Source: a virus
Taxonomy: Duplodnaviria; Caudoviricetes
IMG/VR virus record: IMGVR_UViG_2724679537_000002
Location: 5,485-69,484 of that record
Length of the DNA: 64,000 nt
Reading direction: 5' to 3' (one strand)
Below the pieces are notes generated by a model. That model was not told the DNA's origin and did not search any database. It saw nothing but the letters and a program-made list of their open reading frames with translations. The position numbers and the translations under genes are program-made. Below are positions 2,779 to 56,670 of this stretch, in pieces. The first letter of the stretch is position 1. Each line of letters begins with the position of its first letter.

Positions 2779-5700
2779 TCAGGTCATGCCACTGTAGGCG
2801 CCGGTGACGATATGGGCGATGCGACGATCCGGCACGTCGCGACTGACATCCTGCGGCCCGCGGGACGGCTGGCGGGCGTCGCCCTGCCCCTTCGGCGAGG
2901 TCATCGGCGCGCTGACGGTTGGCGCCTCGGCCACAGACGGCGCACGCGGTGCGGCAATGGTGGCGGGCGGTTGCGGCGAGACGCCCACCGGCGGATGGGC
3001 GGGGGTCAATCCCAGGGCGGCCAGGTGGTCGGTCCTCACCGTGGCGGACGCCGTGGCCGTCGCAGGCGCGGGCGCGCTCACAGGCTCGCCGGCCGGCGAT
3101 GACACCACCTCGGCCACTGACGGCGGTGCGCCGGGCGATGGCGAGACGCTGAACTCGCCGGCGCGGGCTGCGGCCAGGTACTCGTCCGTTGCCGCCTGGC
3201 GGTCGGCCAGGCCATTGGCGCCGCCATTGATCAGGCGCGTGACCTCACGGGTATCGCCCTGCTTGGCCGCTTCCGACAGGCCGTCGCGGCTCTGCCAGTA
3301 CCAGGTGGCGATTCGCGCCGCCACCTCGGGGTCGGCCGCCAGGTCGGGGTTGTTCACCAGGTCGACGCCCAGCGCTTCGCTGGCGGCGGTATAGTTGTCG
3401 CGCCCGGTCAGCTGCGTGAAGCCGCGTCCACGATAGCGGTAGCCGTCGCCGGCCTCGGTATTGCCCATGCGGCCGCCGTACATGAGCTCGGCGACCGCCT
3501 CCGGGCCCTGCGCCATCGCCGCCTCAACCGCTTCACGCCCCTGGTTGCGAGCCGTGGCGCTGACTTCCATGATCCGGTCGGCGCTGCGGTAGCTGAAGCT
3601 CTCCTCCATGGTGCGAAAGCCGCCGGACTCGTGGTGCATCTGCCCCATGAAGGCCGCCTGCTCGTTGGGGTCGGTGATGCCGGCCTCGGCCATGGCCTGC
3701 GTCAGGGCGGGAACGGCAGACGCCTCGTTGTGAGCGTTGCGCACCATGCCCACGACCGACGAAATGCCGGTCCTCTCGCCTACCCAGCTCGCCCCGGAGG
3801 AGAGGCGATTACCCAGCCAGCCGGCGGCGCGCTCGAAGCGGTCCGCGGCTGCCTCGGCTCTGTCGGCCGTCCAGGCAGCGGCGGCGTCAGCGCGCTCGCC
3901 GGCCCAGTCGGCAGCACTGCCCGCGCGCTCGGAGACCCACTCGGACGTCTCGATGGCACGGTCAGAGACCCATTGCCCGGTTTCGCGGGCGGTTTCCGCC
4001 ACGTCGACGCCGGTCTTCTCGGCAATCCATGCATTGGCGCCTTCCGCCATGTCGGTCAGCGCCCCCCAGCCCTCGGCGGCCAGGCTGACGGCGCTGTCCC
4101 ACAGCCCCTTCATCTCATCGGTGACTGCCGTCCAGCGCTCGGCGATGGTGTTCGATAGCGCCTCCCAGCGCTCGGACAGGCCCTGCGTGGCGGAATCCCA
4201 CAGGCTGCTGAAGGTGGCGGTCGCCGACTCCCAGCGCGCCGACACGCCCTCGCTGGTCTGCTCCCAGAGGCTCGACATGAAGGTGGTGGCGTACTCCCAG
4301 CGCTGGGCGAGGCCCTGGACCAGGTTGGACTTGCGAAGGTCGGTAACCCAGCCGCCGACCTTCTCGCCGACGAGCTCACCGGCATTGCCGCCGAAGAAAC
4401 CACCTGCCGCGGCGCCGATGATGCCGCCGATGGCGGTGCCTATGCCCGGCACCACGGAGCCGATGGCCGCGCCTGCCGCGGCGCCGCCGGCCATGCCGCC
4501 AATGCCGCCCAGGCCGCCACCGATGGCGCGCCCGGTCATGACATCCTTCTCGGCCCGGCTGGCATCGCTGCTTTCGCTGGCTGCGATGTCGCTGGCCATG
4601 AACCCCAGGCCCAGCAGCGCACCAATGCCGGGTATGCGGCGTGCCCCGCCTTTCAGCAGACGGCCGAATCGCCCGCCACTGCCACCACCCTGAGGCGAGG
4701 CCGACGCGGCCCTCGACGGGGAACCACCCCCCTGGCCCGGCGGTCGCGACGCAGCGGTACCAGCGGCGCCCGCCCTGGCGGCGGCGCGTCCTGCCGGCCC
4801 GCCACCGCCGCGCCGTGGCGTGGTGCGCCCGCTGCCGGGCACGGTCATGCGTCGCGCCACGCGACCAAGCCCCAGGGCGGTCAGCAATGCCTTGAGGCCA
4901 GTGATCACCGCTCCGGCCAGGGCGATCGGCAGGCCACCCAGCAACGACAGCATGCTGGTGACGGGGATCAGCAGCAGCATGAGGCCGCGCCAAAGTATGG
5001 ACCCGCTGTCGCCACCGGTCGGCTTGCGCTCGATGTTCTTCAGTATGCGGCGCTGTCGCTTACCCTCCTCGCGATCCTCGCGGCGAGAGCCGCGCATCAT
5101 CGTCCAGAAGCGGCGATACCAGCGCTCCTGTTTGCGGTCGCCGCCGTCGCCCATGATCTTGCTGAAGCCACGGGACAGCGGCTGGGCGACCTCGTTGAAC
5201 GCTTTGACGGCAGGGTCGGCCTCTTCGGTGCCGGCACCGACCTCTTGCAGGGCACCGCTCAATCGGTCGCTGAGCCCGTCGATGGAGCGCGACAGCAGGC
5301 CGGGCTCGTCATCACCGACCGCATCGCGCCCGCCACCTCCGACGAAGCGGCCATCGGGGCCACGCCCACCTTCCTCCCCGGGGCGCGTCTCGGACAGGTC
5401 GCGGCCTGGCGATGTCGTTGCGCCACGGGCGGCAAAGCGGCCGCTGGCATCGCGCTCACGCTGCGGCGTGATGGCAGCAACCGTCGGCGTCGCCCGGGGA
5501 GAAGATTCCGCGCCCTGCGCGGGAGTGCCCGCCGATGCCGACGCCTGAGGCGTGTCGGCGCCCGCCTGCCCCGCCAGACTGGTCGTCTCGGTCTCGATGC
5601 TGCGCTCGGTCTCGATGCTGCGATAGACGTATCGCCCAGGCTCCCGGCGCTCAGGGGGCGTGGCGGCGATGGCTGGCCGGTCGATGCGGATCACCACTTC

Positions 5701-48516: not shown

Positions 48517-49614
48517 ATGAGCATGACCATTGAACAGGCCAAACACGAACTGATCACCAACCATCGCGTCGCCACCCTGGATATGCCCGAGGAGGTGTGG
48601 CTGCAGCTGCGCGGGCTCGGCATCGGGGCCAGCGAGGCCGCGGCAGCCGTCGGGGCTAGCGAGCACCGCACCCCGTTCGATATCGCCGAGCGCAAGCTGG
48701 GCCTAGTCAGCGACGACGCGGACGCCAACTACCGCCGCCGCCAGAAGATGGCCATGGGCCACGTCATGGAGCCGGTGACCGCTTCCCGCTTCGCGGAGTT
48801 CACCGGGCTCAACGTCCAGAACTTCAACTGCATGCTGGCCCACCCCGAGCACCCGTTCATGCTGGCCAACATCGACCGCCGCATCGTCGGCGTCACCGAT
48901 GCGCAGTCGGCCTGGCTCGAGCTGGTCATGGGCCAGACCGTGAAGGGCCCGGGCGTGGCCGAGCTCAAGAACGTCGAGTTCGCGCAGGGCTGGGGCAGGC
49001 CGGACAACGTGCACACCACCGGCGGGCTGTGCACCACAGGCGAGGTGCCGGAGGACTACTTCATTCAGGTGCAGCACCAACTGGCCGTCACCGGCTACGA
49101 GTGGGGCTTCCTGGTGGTGACTATCGCCGGTTGGGAGACTCGCTGGTACCCCATCCTGCGCGACGACGAGCTGATCGACGACCTGATCGCCCTGGAGGGC
49201 GAGCTGTGGGCCACCATCCAGCGCGGCGAGATGCCGGAGATTGATGTTGAGCACCCCAAGGCCATCGAGCTGCTCAAGCGCCTGCACCCGGGCACCGACG
49301 GCAGCATGGTCGACCTATCCGCGCTCGAGCATTGGCGCAAGGTCGAGCAACAGGCCAAGGAGGAGATCAAGGCCCTGGAGACCACCGCCAAGGTGGCCCG
49401 CGCCCACATCCTCGAGGCCATGGGCGATGCTGCGGTGGCCACCTTCGGTGACGACCAGGTGATGCGCCGCAAGGTGACCAAGCGCAAGGCCTACACCGTC
49501 GAGGTCGGCGAGAGCGAGTACGTCGACATCCGCTACGGGAAGATGAACAAGGCCGAGAAGGACCAGCTGGCCGCACAGGCCGATGATGTCGAACAACAAG
49601 GAGAAGCCGCATGA
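48517..49614 (+). CDS. YqaJ/lambda-exonuclease family recombinase exonuclease
   Basis: GIGASEAAA, GHVMEP, MLANIDR, ELKN, YFIQVQHQLAVTG. Confidence 0.92.
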   Translation: MSMTIEQAKHELITNHRVATLDMPEEVWLQLRGLGIGASEAAAAVGASEHRTPFDIAERKLGLVSDDADANYRRRQKMAMGHVMEPVTASRFAEFTGLNVQNFNCMLAHPEHPFMLANIDRRIVGVTDAQSAWLELVMGQTVKGPGVAELKNVEFAQGWGRPDNVHTTGGLCTTGEVPEDYFIQVQHQLAVTGYEWGFLVVTIAGWETRWYPILRDDELIDDLIALEGELWATIQRGEMPEIDVEHPKAIELLKRLHPGTDGSMVDLSALEHWRKVEQQAKEEIKALETTAKVARAHILEAMGDAAVATFGDDQVMRRKVTKRKAYTVEVGESEYVDIRYGKMNKAEKDQLAAQADDVEQQGEAA

Positions 49615-50666
49615 CTACTGCACCCCTCAACGCACAGCAGTTCCAAGCCCCCGCCGAGAGCCAGGCGGCGGCGCCGTCGATCCAGACGCAGGAGGAGATG
49701 CAGAACCTGCTGTTCAACCACAACGCCATGAGCCAGCTCTACAACCTGGCTCAGGTGATGGCCAAGGGGCAGTCGACGGTGCCCCGCCACCTTCAGGGCA
49801 ACGCCGGGGACTGCATGGCGGTGGTGATGCAGGCCGCGCAGTGGCGCATGAACCCCTTCGCCGTCGCGCAGAAGACCCACCTGGTCAACGGCACGCTGGG
49901 CTACGAGGCTCAACTGGTCAACGCTGTGATCAACACCATGGCACCCACCACCGGGCGGCTGCAGTACGAGTGGTTCGGCGAATGGACGAAGATCATCGGC
50001 AAGTTCGTCGAGAAGCAGGGGCAGAAAGGCACCTACAAGGCGCCGGGCTGGACCTCGAAAGACGAGGAAGGGCTGGGCGTTCGCGTGTGGGCCACGCTCA
50101 AGGGCGAAGACGAGCCCCGTGTACTGGAGATCCTGCTGACCCAGGCCCAAACCCGCAACTCCACTCTGTGGGCCAGCGACCCCAAGCAGCAGCTCGCCTA
50201 CCTGGCCATCAAGCGCTGGGCGCGCCTGTACTGCCCCGACGTGATCCTGGGCGTCTACACCCCCGACGAGGTGGACGGCTACGGCCAACAGGCCGGCGAG
50301 CGTGACGTGACGCCGCGCCAAGCAGCGCAAGGACCGGGCTCTCTGCCCAGTAATGCCCAAGGCAGGGTCAAGGCCAAGCTCTCTCAGAAGCTCCAGTCGA
50401 AGGCGCAGCAAGCGCGGCATCAGGAGGCACCGCCGGCCAGCGACCCCGCCGAGGCGCCGACGGGTGAGCCCGAGGATGCCGCCCCCGGCGGCGAGATCAC
50501 CTGCGCTTACGTCTGCGAGCAGATCAAGAAGGCGTACAGCCCGGACGAGCTGGCCGAAGCCGCCGATATGGCCCGCCACCTGCCGGAAGGCGACCAAGGC
50601 GTAGCCCGGGAGGCCTACAAGGCTCGCCTGGCCACGCTCAAGCAGCAAGCTGACGGCGGCCAGTAA
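49611..50666 (+). CDS. recT: RecT-family single-strand annealing protein
   Basis: VPRHLQGNAGDC...NPFAVAQKTHLVNGTLGYEAQL...WARLYCPDVILGVY. Confidence 0.9.
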   Translation: MTTAPLNAQQFQAPAESQAAAPSIQTQEEMQNLLFNHNAMSQLYNLAQVMAKGQSTVPRHLQGNAGDCMAVVMQAAQWRMNPFAVAQKTHLVNGTLGYEAQLVNAVINTMAPTTGRLQYEWFGEWTKIIGKFVEKQGQKGTYKAPGWTSKDEEGLGVRVWATLKGEDEPRVLEILLTQAQTRNSTLWASDPKQQLAYLAIKRWARLYCPDVILGVYTPDEVDGYGQQAGERDVTPRQAAQGPGSLPSNAQGRVKAKLSQKLQSKAQQARHQEAPPASDPAEAPTGEPEDAAPGGEITCAYVCEQIKKAYSPDELAEAADMARHLPEGDQGVAREAYKARLATLKQQADGGQ

Positions 50667-50782
50667 GCCGCCACTCCTCGACCCCGCACGACGGGGCCTT
50701 CACCACCAGCCGGAAACACATGGCGCCAAGCCCGCTTGGGGCTGCCGCGCGCCCGTACCCCGGCGCAATAGGAGCCACGACG

Positions 50783-51367
50783 ATGAAAACCGTCACCCTG
50801 AAACTGACCGGCATTTCGCCGCTTCTCATGCACAGCGACCGCTATGCGAACCCGCTCGACCCCATGACCAAGGCCCATAAGGTGCTGACCGGAAAGCGCA
50901 AGAAGCTGGACGAGGATCACGAAGCCATCGCCAAGTCCGAATGGATGGGCGGCCTCTACCACGATAAGGACATGGGCCCTTATCTGCCGGGCCAGAACAT
51001 CAAGTCTGCCTTGGTGGGTGCTGCCAAGCTCAACCGCCTGGGCGCCGCCTTCAAGCGCGGCGTCATGGTGCTGGAAGAGCGCGTCAAGCTCGACTATCCC
51101 GGCCCGCGCGACCCGGAAAAGATGTTTGCCGAAAGAAAGTTCGTCGACTGCCGCTCGGTGGTAGTCAGCCAATCGAGGTTGATGCGCTATCGGCCCAAGA
51201 TTCATGACTGGTCGCTTCAGGTCGACGTGATGTTCAGCCCAGAGATGACCGAGCAAGACAGCATCGCGCGCGCTGCTGAGGACGCCGGCATGTTCGTCGG
51301 CCTGGGCGATTACCGTCCCGAGAAGGGCGGCACCTTTGGGCGCTTCAATGTGGAGGTTGTGCAGTGA
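50783..51367 (+). CDS. Stand-alone RAMP/Cas7-like protein
   Basis: 194 aa; N-terminal strand KLTGISPLLMH, PYLPGQNIKSAL, C-terminal Gly-rich loop VGLGDYRPEKGGTFGRF: RAMP (Csm3/Cmr4-type) motif order. Confidence 0.8.
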   Translation: MKTVTLKLTGISPLLMHSDRYANPLDPMTKAHKVLTGKRKKLDEDHEAIAKSEWMGGLYHDKDMGPYLPGQNIKSALVGAAKLNRLGAAFKRGVMVLEERVKLDYPGPRDPEKMFAERKFVDCRSVVVSQSRLMRYRPKIHDWSLQVDVMFSPEMTEQDSIARAAEDAGMFVGLGDYRPEKGGTFGRFNVEVVQ

Positions 51368-51834
51368 GCAAGGACACCACCTGGATGGAAGGCGCCATCG
51401 CCGCCTTCGACCGCGAAGGTTTCAAGGATGGCGACCTGATCAGTCACGAGTGGCTTGACTGGGCGCTGGATATGCCAGCGCCCGCCACCGTAGCCGAATA
51501 CGAGAAAGCGCGCTGGGAGGAGCGGAGCCGCCTCAAGAGCTTCTTCACCTACCTGATGGAGGAGCGCTGCATCGTGGTCGCCAACGTCTGGGGCGAGGGC
51601 TACCGAATCGTCCCGCCTGACGACCAGGCCGGCTTCGCCATCCACGCCCTGACCAGGGTAATCAACAAGAGCCTGAGCAAGACACAGCGCATCCTGGCGC
51701 ATGCCCGCTTCGACGAGATGAGCGACGAAGGCGCTCGCCGCCACGTCGACGCTCAGGCCCGGGTGGCGGGATTCCAGCAGCTGATGAATCGGCAGCAGAA
51801 GCGCCTCACCCTTCCCTTCCATCCCGCCGAATAG
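51364..51834 (+). CDS. Accessory protein coupled to the RAMP gene
   Basis: 156 aa, GTGA overlap, GGAGG RBS; NVWGEGYRIVPP. Confidence 0.8.
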   Translation: MSKDTTWMEGAIAAFDREGFKDGDLISHEWLDWALDMPAPATVAEYEKARWEERSRLKSFFTYLMEERCIVVANVWGEGYRIVPPDDQAGFAIHALTRVINKSLSKTQRILAHARFDEMSDEGARRHVDAQARVAGFQQLMNRQQKRLTLPFHPAE

Positions 51835-51841
51835 CGCGATT

Positions 51842-52184
51842 GGCTCAGCGCGCGGCATGCGATGGCATGGCTCGGTCCGGCCAGGCATCGCGTGGCAAGG
51901 GCTGCGTATGCAGCGGTCTGGCGGCTTGCGAGCCGCCCTTCCGGTGCAGATGCACCAAGGGCGCGGCCCGGCGCCGTCTGGCAAGGCAGGGCGGGGCACC
52001 CCAAGGGCTACAACGTAGCGGTCTGCCCTCTCGGCGAGAGGGCTTTCCGGTGCGAAAGCGCTACGTGGCTTTGCACGGCGGGGCATGGCGCGGCCCGGTA
52101 TGGCAAGGATTGGCACGGCACCCCAAGGGCTGCAACGCAGCGTGTAGCGCCTTCTTCGAGGGCGCTATGCCGTGCGCATGCACG
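51842..52184 (+). ncRNA. Array of three structured RNAs: (GGY-NN)n tract plus three-hairpin tail
   Basis: 5-nt periodic tracts at 51854-51898, 51960-51999, 52067-52121; each followed by AAGGGCT (51897, 52003, 52125) and covarying hairpins. Confidence 0.8.
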
Positions 52185-52210
52185 CACCTGAACACGAGAA
52201 AGGAGCCGAT

Positions 52211-52774
52211 ATGGCACGCGGAGTGAACAAGGTCATCCTCATTGGCAACCTGGGTCAGGATCCGGAGGTGCGCTTCATGCCCTCCGGCAACCCGGTCGCC
52301 AACCTACGGCTGGCCACTACCGACAGCTGGATGGACCGTCAGAGCGGGCAGCGACAGGAGCGCACCGAGTGGCACAGCGTCGTGCTGTTCAACAAGACGG
52401 CCGAAATCGCCCAGCAGTACCTGCGCAAGGGCTCCAAGGTCTACATCGAGGGCCGCCTGCAGACGCGCAAGTGGCAGGGGCAGGACGGCCAGGACCGCTA
52501 CAGCACCGAGATCGTCGCCAACGACATGCAGATGCTCGACTCCCGCGACGACCAGCAGGGGCAGTCGGCCGGCGGCTACGGCGGCCAGCCACAAGGCGAC
52601 TACGGCCAGGGCGGCCAGCAGCAGCGCAGGCAGCCGCCTCAGAGTCAGCCGCCCGGCTACGGCGCCCCGCCGCCCAGCCAGGCCCCGCAAGGCGGAGGCG
52701 GGGGCGGGGGCGGCTTCAGCGACTTCGACGACGAGATCCCGTTCGCCCGGTTCCCGAATATCGCCGGGGGCTGA
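52211..52774 (+). CDS. ssb: Single-stranded DNA-binding protein
   Basis: [21 protein letters not shown]...DFDDEIPF. Confidence 0.97.
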
Positions 52775-52799
52775 CCCGGGCAGCTATCAAGGAGGCAGC

Positions 52800-53897
52800 A
52801 TGCCAACGATTGATCGAAACGGCACCGTGAGCTTCGGCGATGCCAGCCTGAACGTCCTGAACGTCTGGGAGGAACCGGAGCGTCAGGGCCCGCTTCAGTG
52901 GCAGGCATGGGAGCGCCAGTTCAAGAAGGATGTCTTCCTTCGCATTGCCCAGCAGCTTCGCCGGATTGGCTGGCAGACGGAGGTGCCGGCGGACATGGTC
53001 GAGCGGTACGGCCGGCGCTTCGCCGAAGGTTACCGCTACTGCCGAAAGGGCGACCTACAGGGTCGACTCGAAGTCACCGGTCGCTGCATCAAGTTCGAGA
53101 TGTGGCAGGACGTCGCCAGCGTCGAGAATCCCAACGGCGGGCGCTACGACTTCGATAAAGAAAAGCGGATGCCCTATCTACTTTGGCTGGAGATGGAGCG
53201 CACCCGCCGCCGACTGCGCGCCTACCTATGCAACGTCTTCGCCGGCTACGAGTTCAACCACAAGCCGCGTGACGGGCGCACTGCGAAGCGCGGTCCCGGG
53301 GCGATGACAGCAATGGAGTGGGTCGAGGAATGCTGGCGTACCAGCTGGCATTTCAAGGGCGACACCAGCGCTTACGCGATCAGCGACGTCAACAGGAAGT
53401 CGGCCGATGGAAAGCTGATCGAGCACGGCCAGCGCGTCTACTTCGCGGATCGGAAGGGCCGCATGTGCGTCGGCACCGCCTACTACAACATCAACAACAT
53501 GTGGTGGGTGGTTACCGGCAAGTACGGCGTCACCAATGAGGCCAGTTTCGCTCTCTACGTCGACAGCCCGGGCGACCTTCGGCGAAAACGAAACGATGGC
53601 CTGAGCCGGAAGCGCCTTGAAAGCGAACTATCCCGGGCCGTCAAGGCGATGGACTTCCGACGCGCCGAGACTCTGAAAAACATCCTGTTCCCGCCCGAGG
53701 AACCGCTCTACCTCATCTGGCACAAGGGACACGACGCCTATCACCGCCCTGGCGCCTGCGGCTACACAACCGATGCAAACCAGGCTGGCAAGTTCACATG
53801 GGAGGAGCTGGGGCGCTTTCGCCCTACCGACGGCAGCATGGAAGATCATCTGAGCCTGATCGTGCCGCTGGCGGGCGAGCAAGCAAAGGCAGCATGA
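52800..53897 (+). CDS. Hypothetical phage protein
   Basis: 365 aa from ATG 52800, AAGGAGG RBS; NGGRYDFDK, AYYNINNMWWV. Confidence 0.8.
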   Translation: MPTIDRNGTVSFGDASLNVLNVWEEPERQGPLQWQAWERQFKKDVFLRIAQQLRRIGWQTEVPADMVERYGRRFAEGYRYCRKGDLQGRLEVTGRCIKFEMWQDVASVENPNGGRYDFDKEKRMPYLLWLEMERTRRRLRAYLCNVFAGYEFNHKPRDGRTAKRGPGAMTAMEWVEECWRTSWHFKGDTSAYAISDVNRKSADGKLIEHGQRVYFADRKGRMCVGTAYYNINNMWWVVTGKYGVTNEASFALYVDSPGDLRRKRNDGLSRKRLESELSRAVKAMDFRRAETLKNILFPPEEPLYLIWHKGHDAYHRPGACGYTTDANQAGKFTWEELGRFRPTDGSMEDHLSLIVPLAGEQAKAA

Positions 53898-53923
53898 CCG
53901 TTCCCCGCACGCGCGGGGCTCTA

Positions 53924-54064
53924 CTTGCCTGCCGCACAGGCAGCTCAGAAAACGTGGCCAACGATCCCGGCGCCGCCGTGGTGCTTGCCTGCCGCACAGG
54001 CAGCTCAGAAAACTACAGACCCGCCCTGATCGAGCGGGAACTCCTTGCCTGCCGCACAGGCAGC
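53924..54064 (+). CRISPR. Type I-F-like CRISPR mini-array (2 full repeats, 1 truncated, 2 spacers), no cas genes in window
   Basis: CTTGCCTGCCGCACAGGCAGCTCAGAAA at 53924 and 53984, first 21 nt again at 54044; 32-nt spacers. Confidence 0.92.
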
Positions 54065-54104
54065 CCTATCATCCACCCTGCCCCGCCCTGCCGCGGGGCT
54101 TCCT

Positions 54105-54146
54105 GTTTCTGGAGGACACCATGCAGTTTCTGGAGGACACCATGCA
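54105..54146 (+). repeat. 21-bp tandem duplication containing RBS and start codon
   Basis: GTTTCTGGAGGACACCATGCA twice. Confidence 0.9.
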
Positions 54147-54435
54147 GTGCGATTGCCAAACCAAGGTCGCCGAGAAGCTGGCCGAGCACGTCAAGGCGAA
54201 GCTGCCCGAGGGCTTCAAGGACTTCGATGCCAAGCTCCAGGGCTATGGCTTCACCCTGACCGGCAATCAGATGTCGTCGCCGCTCATGATCGGCTACCAG
54301 GGCGAGGTCTGGGTCCCGAAGAAGGATCCGACCAAGGGCATGAAGCGCCAGAAGATCGACACCTTCGTCACCGCCAACCTCTGCCCCTTCTGCGGCAAGG
54401 CGGCCAAGCCCGACGACGACAAGGAGGCGGCATGA
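54142..54435 (+). CDS. Hypothetical Zn-binding protein
   Basis: MQCDC...CPFCG. Confidence 0.8.
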   Translation: MQCDCQTKVAEKLAEHVKAKLPEGFKDFDAKLQGYGFTLTGNQMSSPLMIGYQGEVWVPKKDPTKGMKRQKIDTFVTANLCPFCGKAAKPDDDKEAA

Positions 54436-54704
54436 GCCAGACACACACCATCGTCGTGAGATTCCCCGCCGGGATTGTGCCGCGATACAGCGCAGCCACC
54501 GAATTTCAGGGCGGCCAGGTGGTGGCCGTGGACTTCGACGGTAACCGATTGCACGTCTGTCAGCAGCTGGAGGAGGCGCTGGAAGCATGCCTTGAGCTGA
54601 TCGATACCATCTCGCCTCTGGAGGGTGATGTGGTTCGCAAGACGCGCGCGGCCCTGGAGCTTGCCCGGAGCGCCCCGGCCAAAGCCAGAGGAGATAGCTC
54701 ATGA
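54432..54704 (+). CDS. Hypothetical protein
   Basis: 90 aa, ATGA-coupled. Confidence 0.7.
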   Translation: MSQTHTIVVRFPAGIVPRYSAATEFQGGQVVAVDFDGNRLHVCQQLEEALEACLELIDTISPLEGDVVRKTRAALELARSAPAKARGDSS

Positions 54705-54895
54705 CACCCCACCCTGACAGCCCCAACGCCAAGTGGGCGCGCCACGGCTACCAGGTCGAGCGCATCCCGCGCCGCGGGAGCGGCGGCCATCACCGCATCA
54801 TCCGCGACCCCGAGGGGCGCGTTGTGCTTCAGGACGCCGGCCACGCCGGCGAACTGGAGTGGATCAAGGCCAACCTGGAGGGGCATGACCCATGA
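54701..54895 (+). CDS. Hypothetical protein
   Basis: 64 aa, ATGA-coupled. Confidence 0.65.
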   Translation: MTPHPDSPNAKWARHGYQVERIPRRGSGGHHRIIRDPEGRVVLQDAGHAGELEWIKANLEGHDP

Positions 54896-56670
54896 ACTAC
54901 GGCAGTGTTTGCAGTGGAATCGAAGCGGCCTCAGTAGCCTGGGAGCCGTTAGGCATGACGCCCGCATGGTTCTCTGAAGTCGAAGCGTTTCCCAGCGCCG
55001 TGCTAGCGCACCACTGGCCTGACGTGCCGAACCTTGGCGACATGACCAAGATAAGCTGCCGCATCCTCTTGGGCGAGATTGAAGCGCCTGATGTGCTGGT
55101 AGGCGGCACGCCCTGCCAAGCGTTCAGCGTCGCGGGAATGCGGGGGGGAATGGCCGATGCGCGCGGCCAGTTAACAATGAAATACGTGGAGCTAGCCAAT
55201 GCAATCGACACTGTTCGAACTCGGGCCGGAAATGCCGAAGCCGTCATCGTCTGGGAAAACGTCCCCGGCGTCCTCAGCGACAAGCAAAACGCCTTCGGAT
55301 GCTTTCTTGGCGCGCTCGCTGGGGAAGACCGCGAATTGCAGCCTTCAGGGAAAAAATGGACGAACGCTGGTTGTGTGTATGGACCCCAAAGAGCAGTCGC
55401 ATGGCGGGTTCTTGACGCCCAATATTTCGGAGTGGCCCAACGACGCCGCCGTGTGTTCGTTGTCGCAAGTGCTCGAACAGACTTCGATCCCGCAGCGGTA
55501 CTTTTTGAGTCCGAAGGCGTGCGCCGGGATACTCCGCCGCGCAGAGAAAAGGGGCAAGGCTTTACCCACGATGCTGCTCCATGCCTTACAAGCTCAGGCC
55601 GCGGCGTTGAACGACCTGGAGAAACCAGAGGGCAAGACCCCGTAGTTGCGGTTCCGCTGCTGGAACCCGGCGCCCGTACTGGGAAAAGCACCACCGACCC
55701 TCGCGTAGGAATGGGTATCGGTACCGACGGTGACCCCATGTACACCTTGCAGGCTGGAAAGCAGCATGGCGTGGCAGTCGCCTTCGGACAAAACCGTCAA
55801 TCAGGGCCAGCAGAAACAAGCCACGCCCTCAACGCTCATAGCGGCCCGCACGGTCGCCTTGATTTTGAGAGCGAGACGTTCCTGGTTCAGTCAGTTACTG
55901 GAAATATCTCGCACACCCTAAACACCGCAAACAACGGAAAAGGCTGCAGCGAAGATGGCACCGGGCGCGGTGTGCCCACGATTGCCTTTAGCTCCAAAGA
56001 CTATGGCGGCGATGCGCTATCAGAATGCTCGCCAACACTACGCGCAGGCGGCCACTCTGACAGCCATGCCAATGCGGGCGTGCCGCCAGCGGTGACGGTG
56101 GCTCTGCGTGGCCGCGAGGGTGGCGCGACTGCCGAGCTAGGCGGCGAGGTTGCCACAGCGCTTCGGGCATCCACCGGTGGGGGTGATAAGCCGCACGTAC
56201 TGACAGTTCACGGCACCCAAGACCCTTGTGTCAGCGATAGCACGGCGTTCGCTTTGGGCCGCAATCATGGCGGGGAAAATACGGTTCTTTCTGGTGTTGA
56301 TACGTACAATGGAAGCGTTACTGGTGACGTTGCTCATACGCTGCGCGATGGTAACTCAGAAGGCGCGCCCGCAGTAGTATCGAATCTCTCCGTCCGCCGC
56401 CTAACCCCACCCGAATGCGAGAAACTGCAAGGCTTTCCGCCCGGCCACACGCTAATACCCACTGCCAAGCGCAACTGGCACCGCGAGTTGGAGGAAATGC
56501 GCGACTATTTCCGCCGCACGCACCCTGACGTCACCGACGACGAGATTATCCGGCTGGCAGCCGATGGCCCGCGCTACAAGGCTATCGGCAACTCGATGGC
56601 CGTGCCCGTCATGCGCTGGATCGGACAGCGCATTCAGCAGGTCGACTCACTACCCACGGCCGCCCACTGA
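54892..56670 (+). CDS. DNA (cytosine-5) methyltransferase with long variable region
   Basis: SVCSGIEA, GGTPCQAFS, WENVPG, QRRRRVF, RRLTPPECEKLQGFP, YKAIGNS. Confidence 0.93.
   Translation: MNYGSVCSGIEAASVAWEPLGMTPAWFSEVEAFPSAVLAHHWPDVPNLGDMTKISCRILLGEIEAPDVLVGGTPCQAFSVAGMRGGMADARGQLTMKYVELANAIDTVRTRAGNAEAVIVWENVPGVLSDKQNAFGCFLGALAGEDRELQPSGKKWTNAGCVYGPQRAVAWRVLDAQYFGVAQRRRRVFVVASARTDFDPAAVLFESEGVRRDTPPRREKGQGFTHDAAPCLTSSGRGVERPGETRGQDPVVAVPLLEPGARTGKSTTDPRVGMGIGTDGDPMYTLQAGKQHGVAVAFGQNRQSGPAETSHALNAHSGPHGRLDFESETFLVQSVTGNISHTLNTANNGKGCSEDGTGRGVPTIAFSSKDYGGDALSECSPTLRAGGHSDSHANAGVPPAVTVALRGREGGATAELGGEVATALRASTGGGDKPHVLTVHGTQDPCVSDSTAFALGRNHGGENTVLSGVDTYNGSVTGDVAHTLRDGNSEGAPAVVSNLSVRRLTPPECEKLQGFPPGHTLIPTAKRNWHRELEEMRDYFRRTHPDVTDDEIIRLAADGPRYKAIGNSMAVPVMRWIGQRIQQVDSLPTAAH
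55199..55645 (+). CDS. Nested +1-frame ORF, candidate second (beta) MTase polypeptide
   Basis: 148 aa ending SLSQVLEQTSIPQRYFLSPKACAGILRRAEKRGKALP. Confidence 0.6.
   Translation: MQSTLFELGPEMPKPSSSGKTSPASSATSKTPSDAFLARSLGKTANCSLQGKNGRTLVVCMDPKEQSHGGFLTPNISEWPNDAAVCSLSQVLEQTSIPQRYFLSPKACAGILRRAEKRGKALPTMLLHALQAQAAALNDLEKPEGKTP

Follow-up and report, generated by a model that had tools for sequence, protein, structure and literature searches.

Organization of the locus

The window analysed here is a stretch of 64,000 nucleotides (positions 5,485 to 69,484 of the IMG/VR record IMGVR_UViG_2724679537_000002), its GC content is 60-68%, and the locus described is part of a provirus record. On the + strand, a vipr homolog is followed by an accessory gene of the vap1 type, and the gap between the ORF ending at 51834 and the start of ssb at 52211 (51835-52210, both genes on +) holds three tandem units (51854-52184, +), each made of 9-12 GGY-NN pentamers and then a tail of three hairpins. 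The pentamers were parsed backward by fives from GGGCT at 51899, 52005 and 52127, which gives the following features:

50783..51367, + strand: vipr, Vipr RAMP protein of 194 aa; ATG at 50783, with AGGAG 8 nt upstream
51364..51834, + strand: vap1-like accessory gene coding for 156 aa; the start codon overlaps the stop codon of vipr
51854..51956, + strand: putative vrRNA 1; guide tract 51854-51898 with 8 variable NN and a constant AA; nine pentamers with the NN string AT,AT,AT,TC,CC,CA,AT,GT,AA; hairpins A 51901-51914, B 51915-51942, C 51943-51956
51960..52062, + strand: putative vrRNA 2; guide tract 51960-52004; nine pentamers with the NN string GC,CC,GC,CT,AA,AG,GG,AC,AA; hairpins A 52007-52019, B 52020-52048, C 52049-52062
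52067..52184, + strand: putative vrRNA 3; guide tract 52067-52126 with 11 variable NN and AA; twelve pentamers with the NN string TT,AC,GG,AT,GC,CC,AT,AA,TT,AC,AC,AA; hairpins A 52129-52141, B 52142-52170, C 52171-52184
52211..52774, + strand: ssb (Pfam SSB, E=3.9e-42); a neighbor, outside the VIPR system

VIPR is a phage-borne system of RNA-guided DNA silencing, first described in preprints of 2026. Its components are the RAMP protein Vipr, a vap gene and the vrRNAs, which measure about 100 nt, are co-purified with Vipr and consist of 9-16 YNNGG repeats ahead of a constant tail at the 3' end (10.64898/2026.04.26.720920). Its dsDNA targets are read as NN-x-NN-x (the "1-nt skip"), on either strand and with no PAM, and the transcription of competing phages and satellites is silenced; the type examples of type II VIPR are SUSP1 and a prophage of P. 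fulva, perturbation of GGY abolished silencing, and no self-targeting is reported (10.64898/2026.04.26.720920). The accompanying structural preprint places one Vipr protomer on each repeat, identifies the residues by which G1, G2 and Y3 are held, and has K33 contacting the target backbone beside the skipped base (10.64898/2026.04.26.720927).

The product of vipr in the window matches the 'SUSP1 Vipr protein' (PDB 36pp_D, E=4.3e-39; query 22-214 against chain 1-190) as well as phrog_4652. A longer ORF starting at 50720 is probably not used. Five of the six contact residues that were checked are identical between the window Vipr (H38, K54, R158, D197, R199) and SUSP1 (H17, K33, R138, D177, R179), and the sixth, W178 in SUSP1, is Y198 in the window, a tyrosine also being reported for P. 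fulva; the helix-1 pair E71/M72 of SUSP1 is Q92/N93 here and is not conserved. Overall identity is 36% to the SUSP1-type homolog of phage Alf5, whose sequence differs little from that of the SUSP1 chain when the alignments are compared, and 72% and 66.5% to the nearest Pseudomonas prophage Vipr proteins found. A genome scan for close Vipr relatives returned one, the P. typographi prophage (72% identity), and a protein-based scan of IMG/VR for such relatives returned none that was confirmed. The vap1-like protein matches phrog_5926 and is related to the gene that follows vipr in Alf5 (27% identity, E=1e-14) and to its counterpart in Pseudomonas phage LESphi2 (29% identity, E=6e-23), the assignment to vap1 being based on these two homologs and not on a published vap1 sequence. 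Pfam gave no match for either the Vipr or the vap1-like protein. A marine metatranscriptome contig overlaps part of vap (51383-51593, 4 differences); that run, one of four public runs compared with the locus and all available as contigs, covers only this segment and part of ssb, and as DNA carry-over is possible, it is not taken as evidence of expression.

Among the nine ORFs scanned with Pfam between 48517 and 56670, four could be named (YqaJ, RecT, SSB and C5 methylase) and five had no match. The YqaJ-like exonuclease and the RecT recombinase lie directly upstream of vipr (48517-50666), with a GC-rich hairpin, ccccgcacgacgggg, at 50682-50696 after the recT stop. Downstream, a 592-aa ORF (54892-56670) carries in its N-terminal third a domain of C-5 cytosine DNA methylases and is the part of the window closest to other phages, with 75-83% nucleotide identity to methylases in phages of several genera. 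Megablast of positions 40000-64000 against phages returned just short matches to ssb and to the methylase; for the intergenic DNA, ssb was the sole match among phages, and none was found among plasmids.

The array starts 20 nt past the end of vap, and the end of vipr lies 487 nt before it on the same strand. In all three units the final NN is AA, and AAGGGCT starts at 51897, 52003 and 52125, where the guide tracts pass into the tails. The earlier note, which had been made from the letters of the window, is borne out in these particulars: the pentamer parse recovers its NN strings exactly in all three units, AAGGGCT stands at the three tract ends that it gave, and the sequences of hairpins A, B and C are in every unit as it wrote them. 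Departures from GGY also occur (GCG, CGC, CGT, TGC and GGA), and CCC takes the place of the last triplet in units 2 and 3; both count against reading the array as VIPR. Units 2 and 3 share a 15-mer, GGCACCCCAAGGGCT (51995-52009 and 52117-52131), in which CCC replaces the last GGY triplet, this triplet being almost always GGC in relatives of the window units. The shared 15-mer could reflect a recent duplication of a unit end or a variant tolerated at the last protomer site. The pattern CAAGGGCTRC-N3-4-GYAGCG occurs three times in the window and not once in 100 shuffles, and the covariance model described below found no vrRNA unit in the window beyond the three. The region is without a match in Rfam. 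A search of 50600-52300 for promoter-like or terminator-like sites gave none, which also counts against the VIPR reading.

Structure of the tail

The three-hairpin fold was obtained with RNAalifold from 38 aligned units and has 5 pairs in hairpin A, 11 in hairpin B and 4 in hairpin C. Across these 20 pairs, 94.5% of the alignment cells are paired, against 73.7% in shuffles, and two-sided changes are found in 16 of the pairs, including all 11 of hairpin B; 147 cells are changed on both sides compared to 49.8 in shuffles. None of 500 shuffles reached the observed value for pairing or for double changes, and controls in which the structure was slid gave 35-60% paired. G-U pairs are frequent (for example, in 13, 25 and 10 sequences at three of the pairs) and fit a + strand RNA only. 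With a covariance model made from these 38 units, units 1, 2 and 3 of the window score 57.9, 69.4 and 60.2 bits on the + strand, high values that are expected since the window units were part of the seed, and the - strand of the window reaches at most 19 bits. The many G-U pairs and the difference in score between the strands together assign the RNA to the + strand.

When units 1 and 2 are folded as single sequences, a long composite hairpin is favored over the three hairpins, and this is counted against the VIPR reading. Hairpins A and C have arms that can also pair with each other, over 19-24 nt and with 74-75% complementarity (51903-51954, 52014-52054 and 52136-52176), so the long hairpin competes with the three-hairpin fold. 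As the main fold it was rejected, being weaker on the alignment, with 86.5% of cells paired overall against 94.5%, and 72.5% and 54.3% in its outer helices. It may represent an alternative state of the tail.

The available part of the first preprint gives a tail structure for the SUSP1 clade only, a pseudoknot drawn from five sequences (10.64898/2026.04.26.720920). For this reason the three-hairpin model, with the covariation behind it, may be a small addition for the Pseudomonas-type clade.

Related units in other loci

Scanning IMG/VR with a pattern gave 119 loci, chiefly chance matches, of which 16 have genuine arrays. With L099, added through a wider unit search, and with the P. typographi prophage, LESphi2 and Medea1, the collection came to 51 distinct units, and 38 of them were aligned. 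Six near-duplicates were left out (L053:833, L078:4581, L081:1667, L081:1788, L108:2620 and L122:2310), as were seven units with visibly different tails (three of L050, and L032:4620, L122:2434, L121:2926 and L103:12876). Leaving out the latter seven favors the three-hairpin model; three of them still score 33-37 bits with it.

In the guide tracts of 47 distinct units, outside the part covered by the model, the first three positions of the pentamer are G in 95%, G in 93% and C or T in 94%, and positions 4 and 5, the NN, have 1.96 and 2.00 bits; the NN string is distinct in 46 of the 47 units. The covariance model found 55 units, non-seed units among them, in 18 of the 100 loci searched; among the 82 that remain, L050 and L124 are true VIPR loci whose tails are of other types. 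A vipr homolog adjoins the array on the same strand in all 18 loci. The array lies upstream of vipr, and not beside ssb, in 17 of them, and that of Medea1 follows vap, like the array of the window.

Other tails were observed in several of these loci. The IMG/VR contig L050 (- strand, three units) is an AT-rich relative placed upstream of a vipr homolog; it retains the GGY-NN tract and hairpin A (GGGCTAC-ttt-GTAGC), and the remainder of its tail, rich in A/T, does not resemble hairpins B and C. In L032 (4600-4703), L122 (2434-2537) and L121 (2926-3018), the unit nearest to vipr has a different tail, scoring 33-37 bits only, with a larger loop in hairpin A (GGGT or similar) followed by one long hairpin; after the latter, an ACCCC-type stretch could pair with the hairpin A loop as a pseudoknot. 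Phage Alf5 (L124) is of the SUSP1 type, having GGT-NN arrays on both sides of vipr-vap (2120-2520 and 3545-3950), a promoter-like site (TTGACA...TATACT) before the first unit and a repeated block, GGTCTTTAA-n-GGGTCTTTTAA, between units.

Variation of the guides

Differences between close relatives of the locus were taken from contigs of public runs, most likely DNA, and are read as variation and not as expression. One relative, seen in such contigs, spans 50700-52684 with 97 differences, and those listed for unit 2 fall almost all on NN positions, together with short insertions. In another run, three pieces flanking unit 2 (about 180-275 nt each) have 0-3 differences, and the loose ends read a different GGC-NN string at unit 2. 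Near-identical copies of the prophage have vipr, vap, the unit 1 tail and the final part of unit 2 in common with the window, but the NN string of their unit 2 is wholly different. This turnover of guides between near-identical loci is a small addition to what is known of VIPR.

It is conceivable, if rather doubtful, that guides are exchanged as whole cassettes between the conserved tails, with the long hairpin formed by A and C leaving room for a switch of fold that would be tied to unit maturation or to Vipr loading. Should the exchange proceed by recombination between constant tails, it would be a Cas1-free gain of new phage specificities, which is an open point in the story leading from VIPR to CRISPR.

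Search for targets

Targets were searched on both strands with the skip rule, in which each GGY becomes one wildcard. Within the window, the best self-targets of the three guides (G1, G2 and G3) matched 13/18, 13/18 and 16/24 bases, which is the level of shuffled NN orders (means of 12.9, 13.5 and 15.8; maxima of 15 to 18). G3, with 22 bases and up to two mismatches, was found in none of 401 genomes of the genus of the P. typographi genome, which may not be the genus of the host. Exact seeds of 8 NN in IMG/VR gave 46 loci for G3(1-8), 33 for G3(4-11), 33 for G1 and 2 for G2, and rough arithmetic puts the chance expectation at about 30 matches per 16-base pattern if the collection has about 6e10 bases.

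The best extension of G3 reached 20/22 in a terminase large-subunit gene of four contigs with 48% GC, where the skipped base falls on codon position 1 and not on the wobble position. G1 matched 16/16 in a DnaB-like helicase on a contig of 63% GC (L218), where the wobble position is the one skipped. For G2, 16/16 bases matched in L238 and in a tail gene of L239, the latter wobble-aligned and on the opposite strand. In metagenomes, the full G3 had no match, and its NN 2-11 matched two homologous genes for HtrA-like proteases on soil-type contigs of high GC. The counts of these external scans are at chance level and the best matches are in unrelated genes, which is counted against the VIPR reading; as no match stands above chance, the terminase, helicase, tail-gene and HtrA-like candidates were rejected and no target is named.

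Proposed function and alternative explanations

Here it is proposed that the region very probably encodes three vrRNAs of a type II-like VIPR system in a high-GC prophage. In favor of this are the Vipr homolog with its contact residues, the vap1-like gene, the number of repeats, the variability of NN, the covariation of the tail, the linkage of the arrays to vipr, the lack of a self-target and the variants of the unit 2 NN string in relatives. The points counted on the other side are those given above, to which the difference between the three-hairpin tail and the pseudoknot of SUSP1 is added.

Much of this had been anticipated in the earlier note. Its idea of a variable dinucleotide code matches both the published VIPR and the hypervariable NN of the family, the structure that it saw conserved in the tail is the one that no shuffle equals in pairing, and the covariance model that it had called for recovers the family in 18 loci. 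Its inference of guide RNAs of ~105-120 nt with a scaffold tail agrees with the vrRNAs of about 100 nt that the preprints report from experiments on the SUSP1 and P. fulva systems, and with the presence of vipr and vap directly upstream. The gapped reading of targets, NN-x-NN-x, which it had suggested as a search template, coincides with the published skip rule; the matches to such targets did not rise above the level of chance or shuffled strings. The idea of a gapped code could therefore be recovered by a reader from the raw sequence alone.

The array would be transcribed from the + strand, probably as one transcript with vipr and vap, given that 50600-52300 has no site resembling a promoter or terminator, and the transcript would be cut into units of about 103-118 nt. 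By analogy with the SUSP1 and P. fulva systems of the preprints, each Vipr protomer would bind one pentamer, holding GGY and presenting NN, and the resulting filament would bind dsDNA by reading NN-x-NN-x. A gapped R-loop would then spread from the tail end and block the transcription of a competing mobile element. In SUSP1, the structural preprint describes a 3' pseudoknot as a cap and an R-loop that grows from the 3' end (10.64898/2026.04.26.720927); the three-hairpin tail would replace this cap as the constant 3' handle and probably sets the ends of the units.

An improbable alternative is that these are orphan or decoy vrRNAs that would mainly serve to divert the VIPR machinery of other phages, and not to arm the phage's own Vipr. 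Solo and decoy vrRNAs are known in satellites and phages from a further preprint, which deals with satellite conflict (10.64898/2026.10.15.759431), and no natural target was found for the window guides. However, the array follows an intact vipr-vap pair on the same strand at a distance of 20 nt, and the tail type of the window adjoins vipr in each of the 18 related loci, both of which speak against such a role.

Far less weight is given to an element that acts as DNA, whether iterons, protein-binding sites or a single-strand promoter or origin serving ssb. The position directly upstream of ssb and after the RecT/YqaJ module would suit such an element, as would the recurrence of GGC at spacings of 5 and 10 nt; against it, 17 of the 18 related arrays are found upstream of vipr and away from ssb, the G-U pairs fit only a + strand RNA, and the NN positions are fully variable.

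The two remaining explanations deserve practically no credit. A decayed pentanucleotide microsatellite or a functionless chance repeat would account for the GGY triplets being imperfect in places, but Tandem Repeats Finder reports nothing in the region, so the array is not a simple microsatellite, and the reading, which the earlier note had also turned down, is already contradicted by the covariation of the tail, by the family in 18 loci and by a GGY that is conserved while NN is at maximal entropy over 47 units. A protein-coding region (ORFs 51840-52226 or 51862-52191 on +, or 51310-52116 on -) has in its favor open frames such as any sequence of 65% GC contains, and is opposed by the 5-nt period, by unit spacings of 106 and 122 nt that are not multiples of 3, by the short insertions inside unit 2 among related contigs and by a conservation that base-pair covariation explains. 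Four early ideas (a TRAP-like ring-protein site, a RecT/SSB-linked ssDNA element, a G-quadruplex and a pentapeptide-coding repeat) were dropped because the upstream gene matched Vipr.

Read as vrRNAs with their own Vipr, the locus would be a well-defined natural VIPR system in a high-GC prophage, far from the two that have been studied, and would supply three native guides together with a covariation-backed tail model for the Pseudomonas-type clade. According to the structural preprint, the register of the RNA in the P. fulva complex could not be set, this complex having no marker like the SUSP1 pseudoknot (10.64898/2026.04.26.720927), and for that reason a defined tail could help to set it.

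Comparison with known systems

The locus has features in common with several systems that use short RNA motifs or guide RNAs. Ring proteins of the TRAP type read RNA triplets spaced by 2-3 nt and regulate their own mRNA. The likeness is in a protein oligomer on a short RNA motif every ~5 nt; in contrast, the conserved triplet is the scaffold here and the variable bases carry the information, and there is no homology.

Class 1 CRISPR systems also have a RAMP protein that polymerizes on a guide RNA with a constant handle and a variable part, and in those of the Cas7 type the thumb breaks the pairing at regular steps. The window differs in having no repeat-spacer array, no cas1/cas2 and no contiguous spacer, and in a period of 5 nt with just 2 read bases: the array has no identical direct repeats with unique spacers and no Rfam CRISPR match, and no cas family was found by Pfam among the nine ORFs of 48517-56670.

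The closest likeness is to type II VIPR, with which the window shares the pair of vipr and vap1, the GGY/NN pentamers, a constant structured 3' tail and tandem intergenic units in a phage or prophage setting, its units of 9, 9 and 12 pentamers being within the published range of 9-16; as a difference, it has no vrRNA upstream of vipr. Its array is downstream of vap, as are three of the four vrRNAs of SUSP1, but its Vipr is only 36% identical to the SUSP1-type protein and its tail has three hairpins where that of SUSP1 is a pseudoknot. The aromatic residue of the G-loop is Y, as in P. fulva. Because VIPR had already been described in 2026, the locus is not a novel kind of system, and the system in the window is of the kind described in those preprints.
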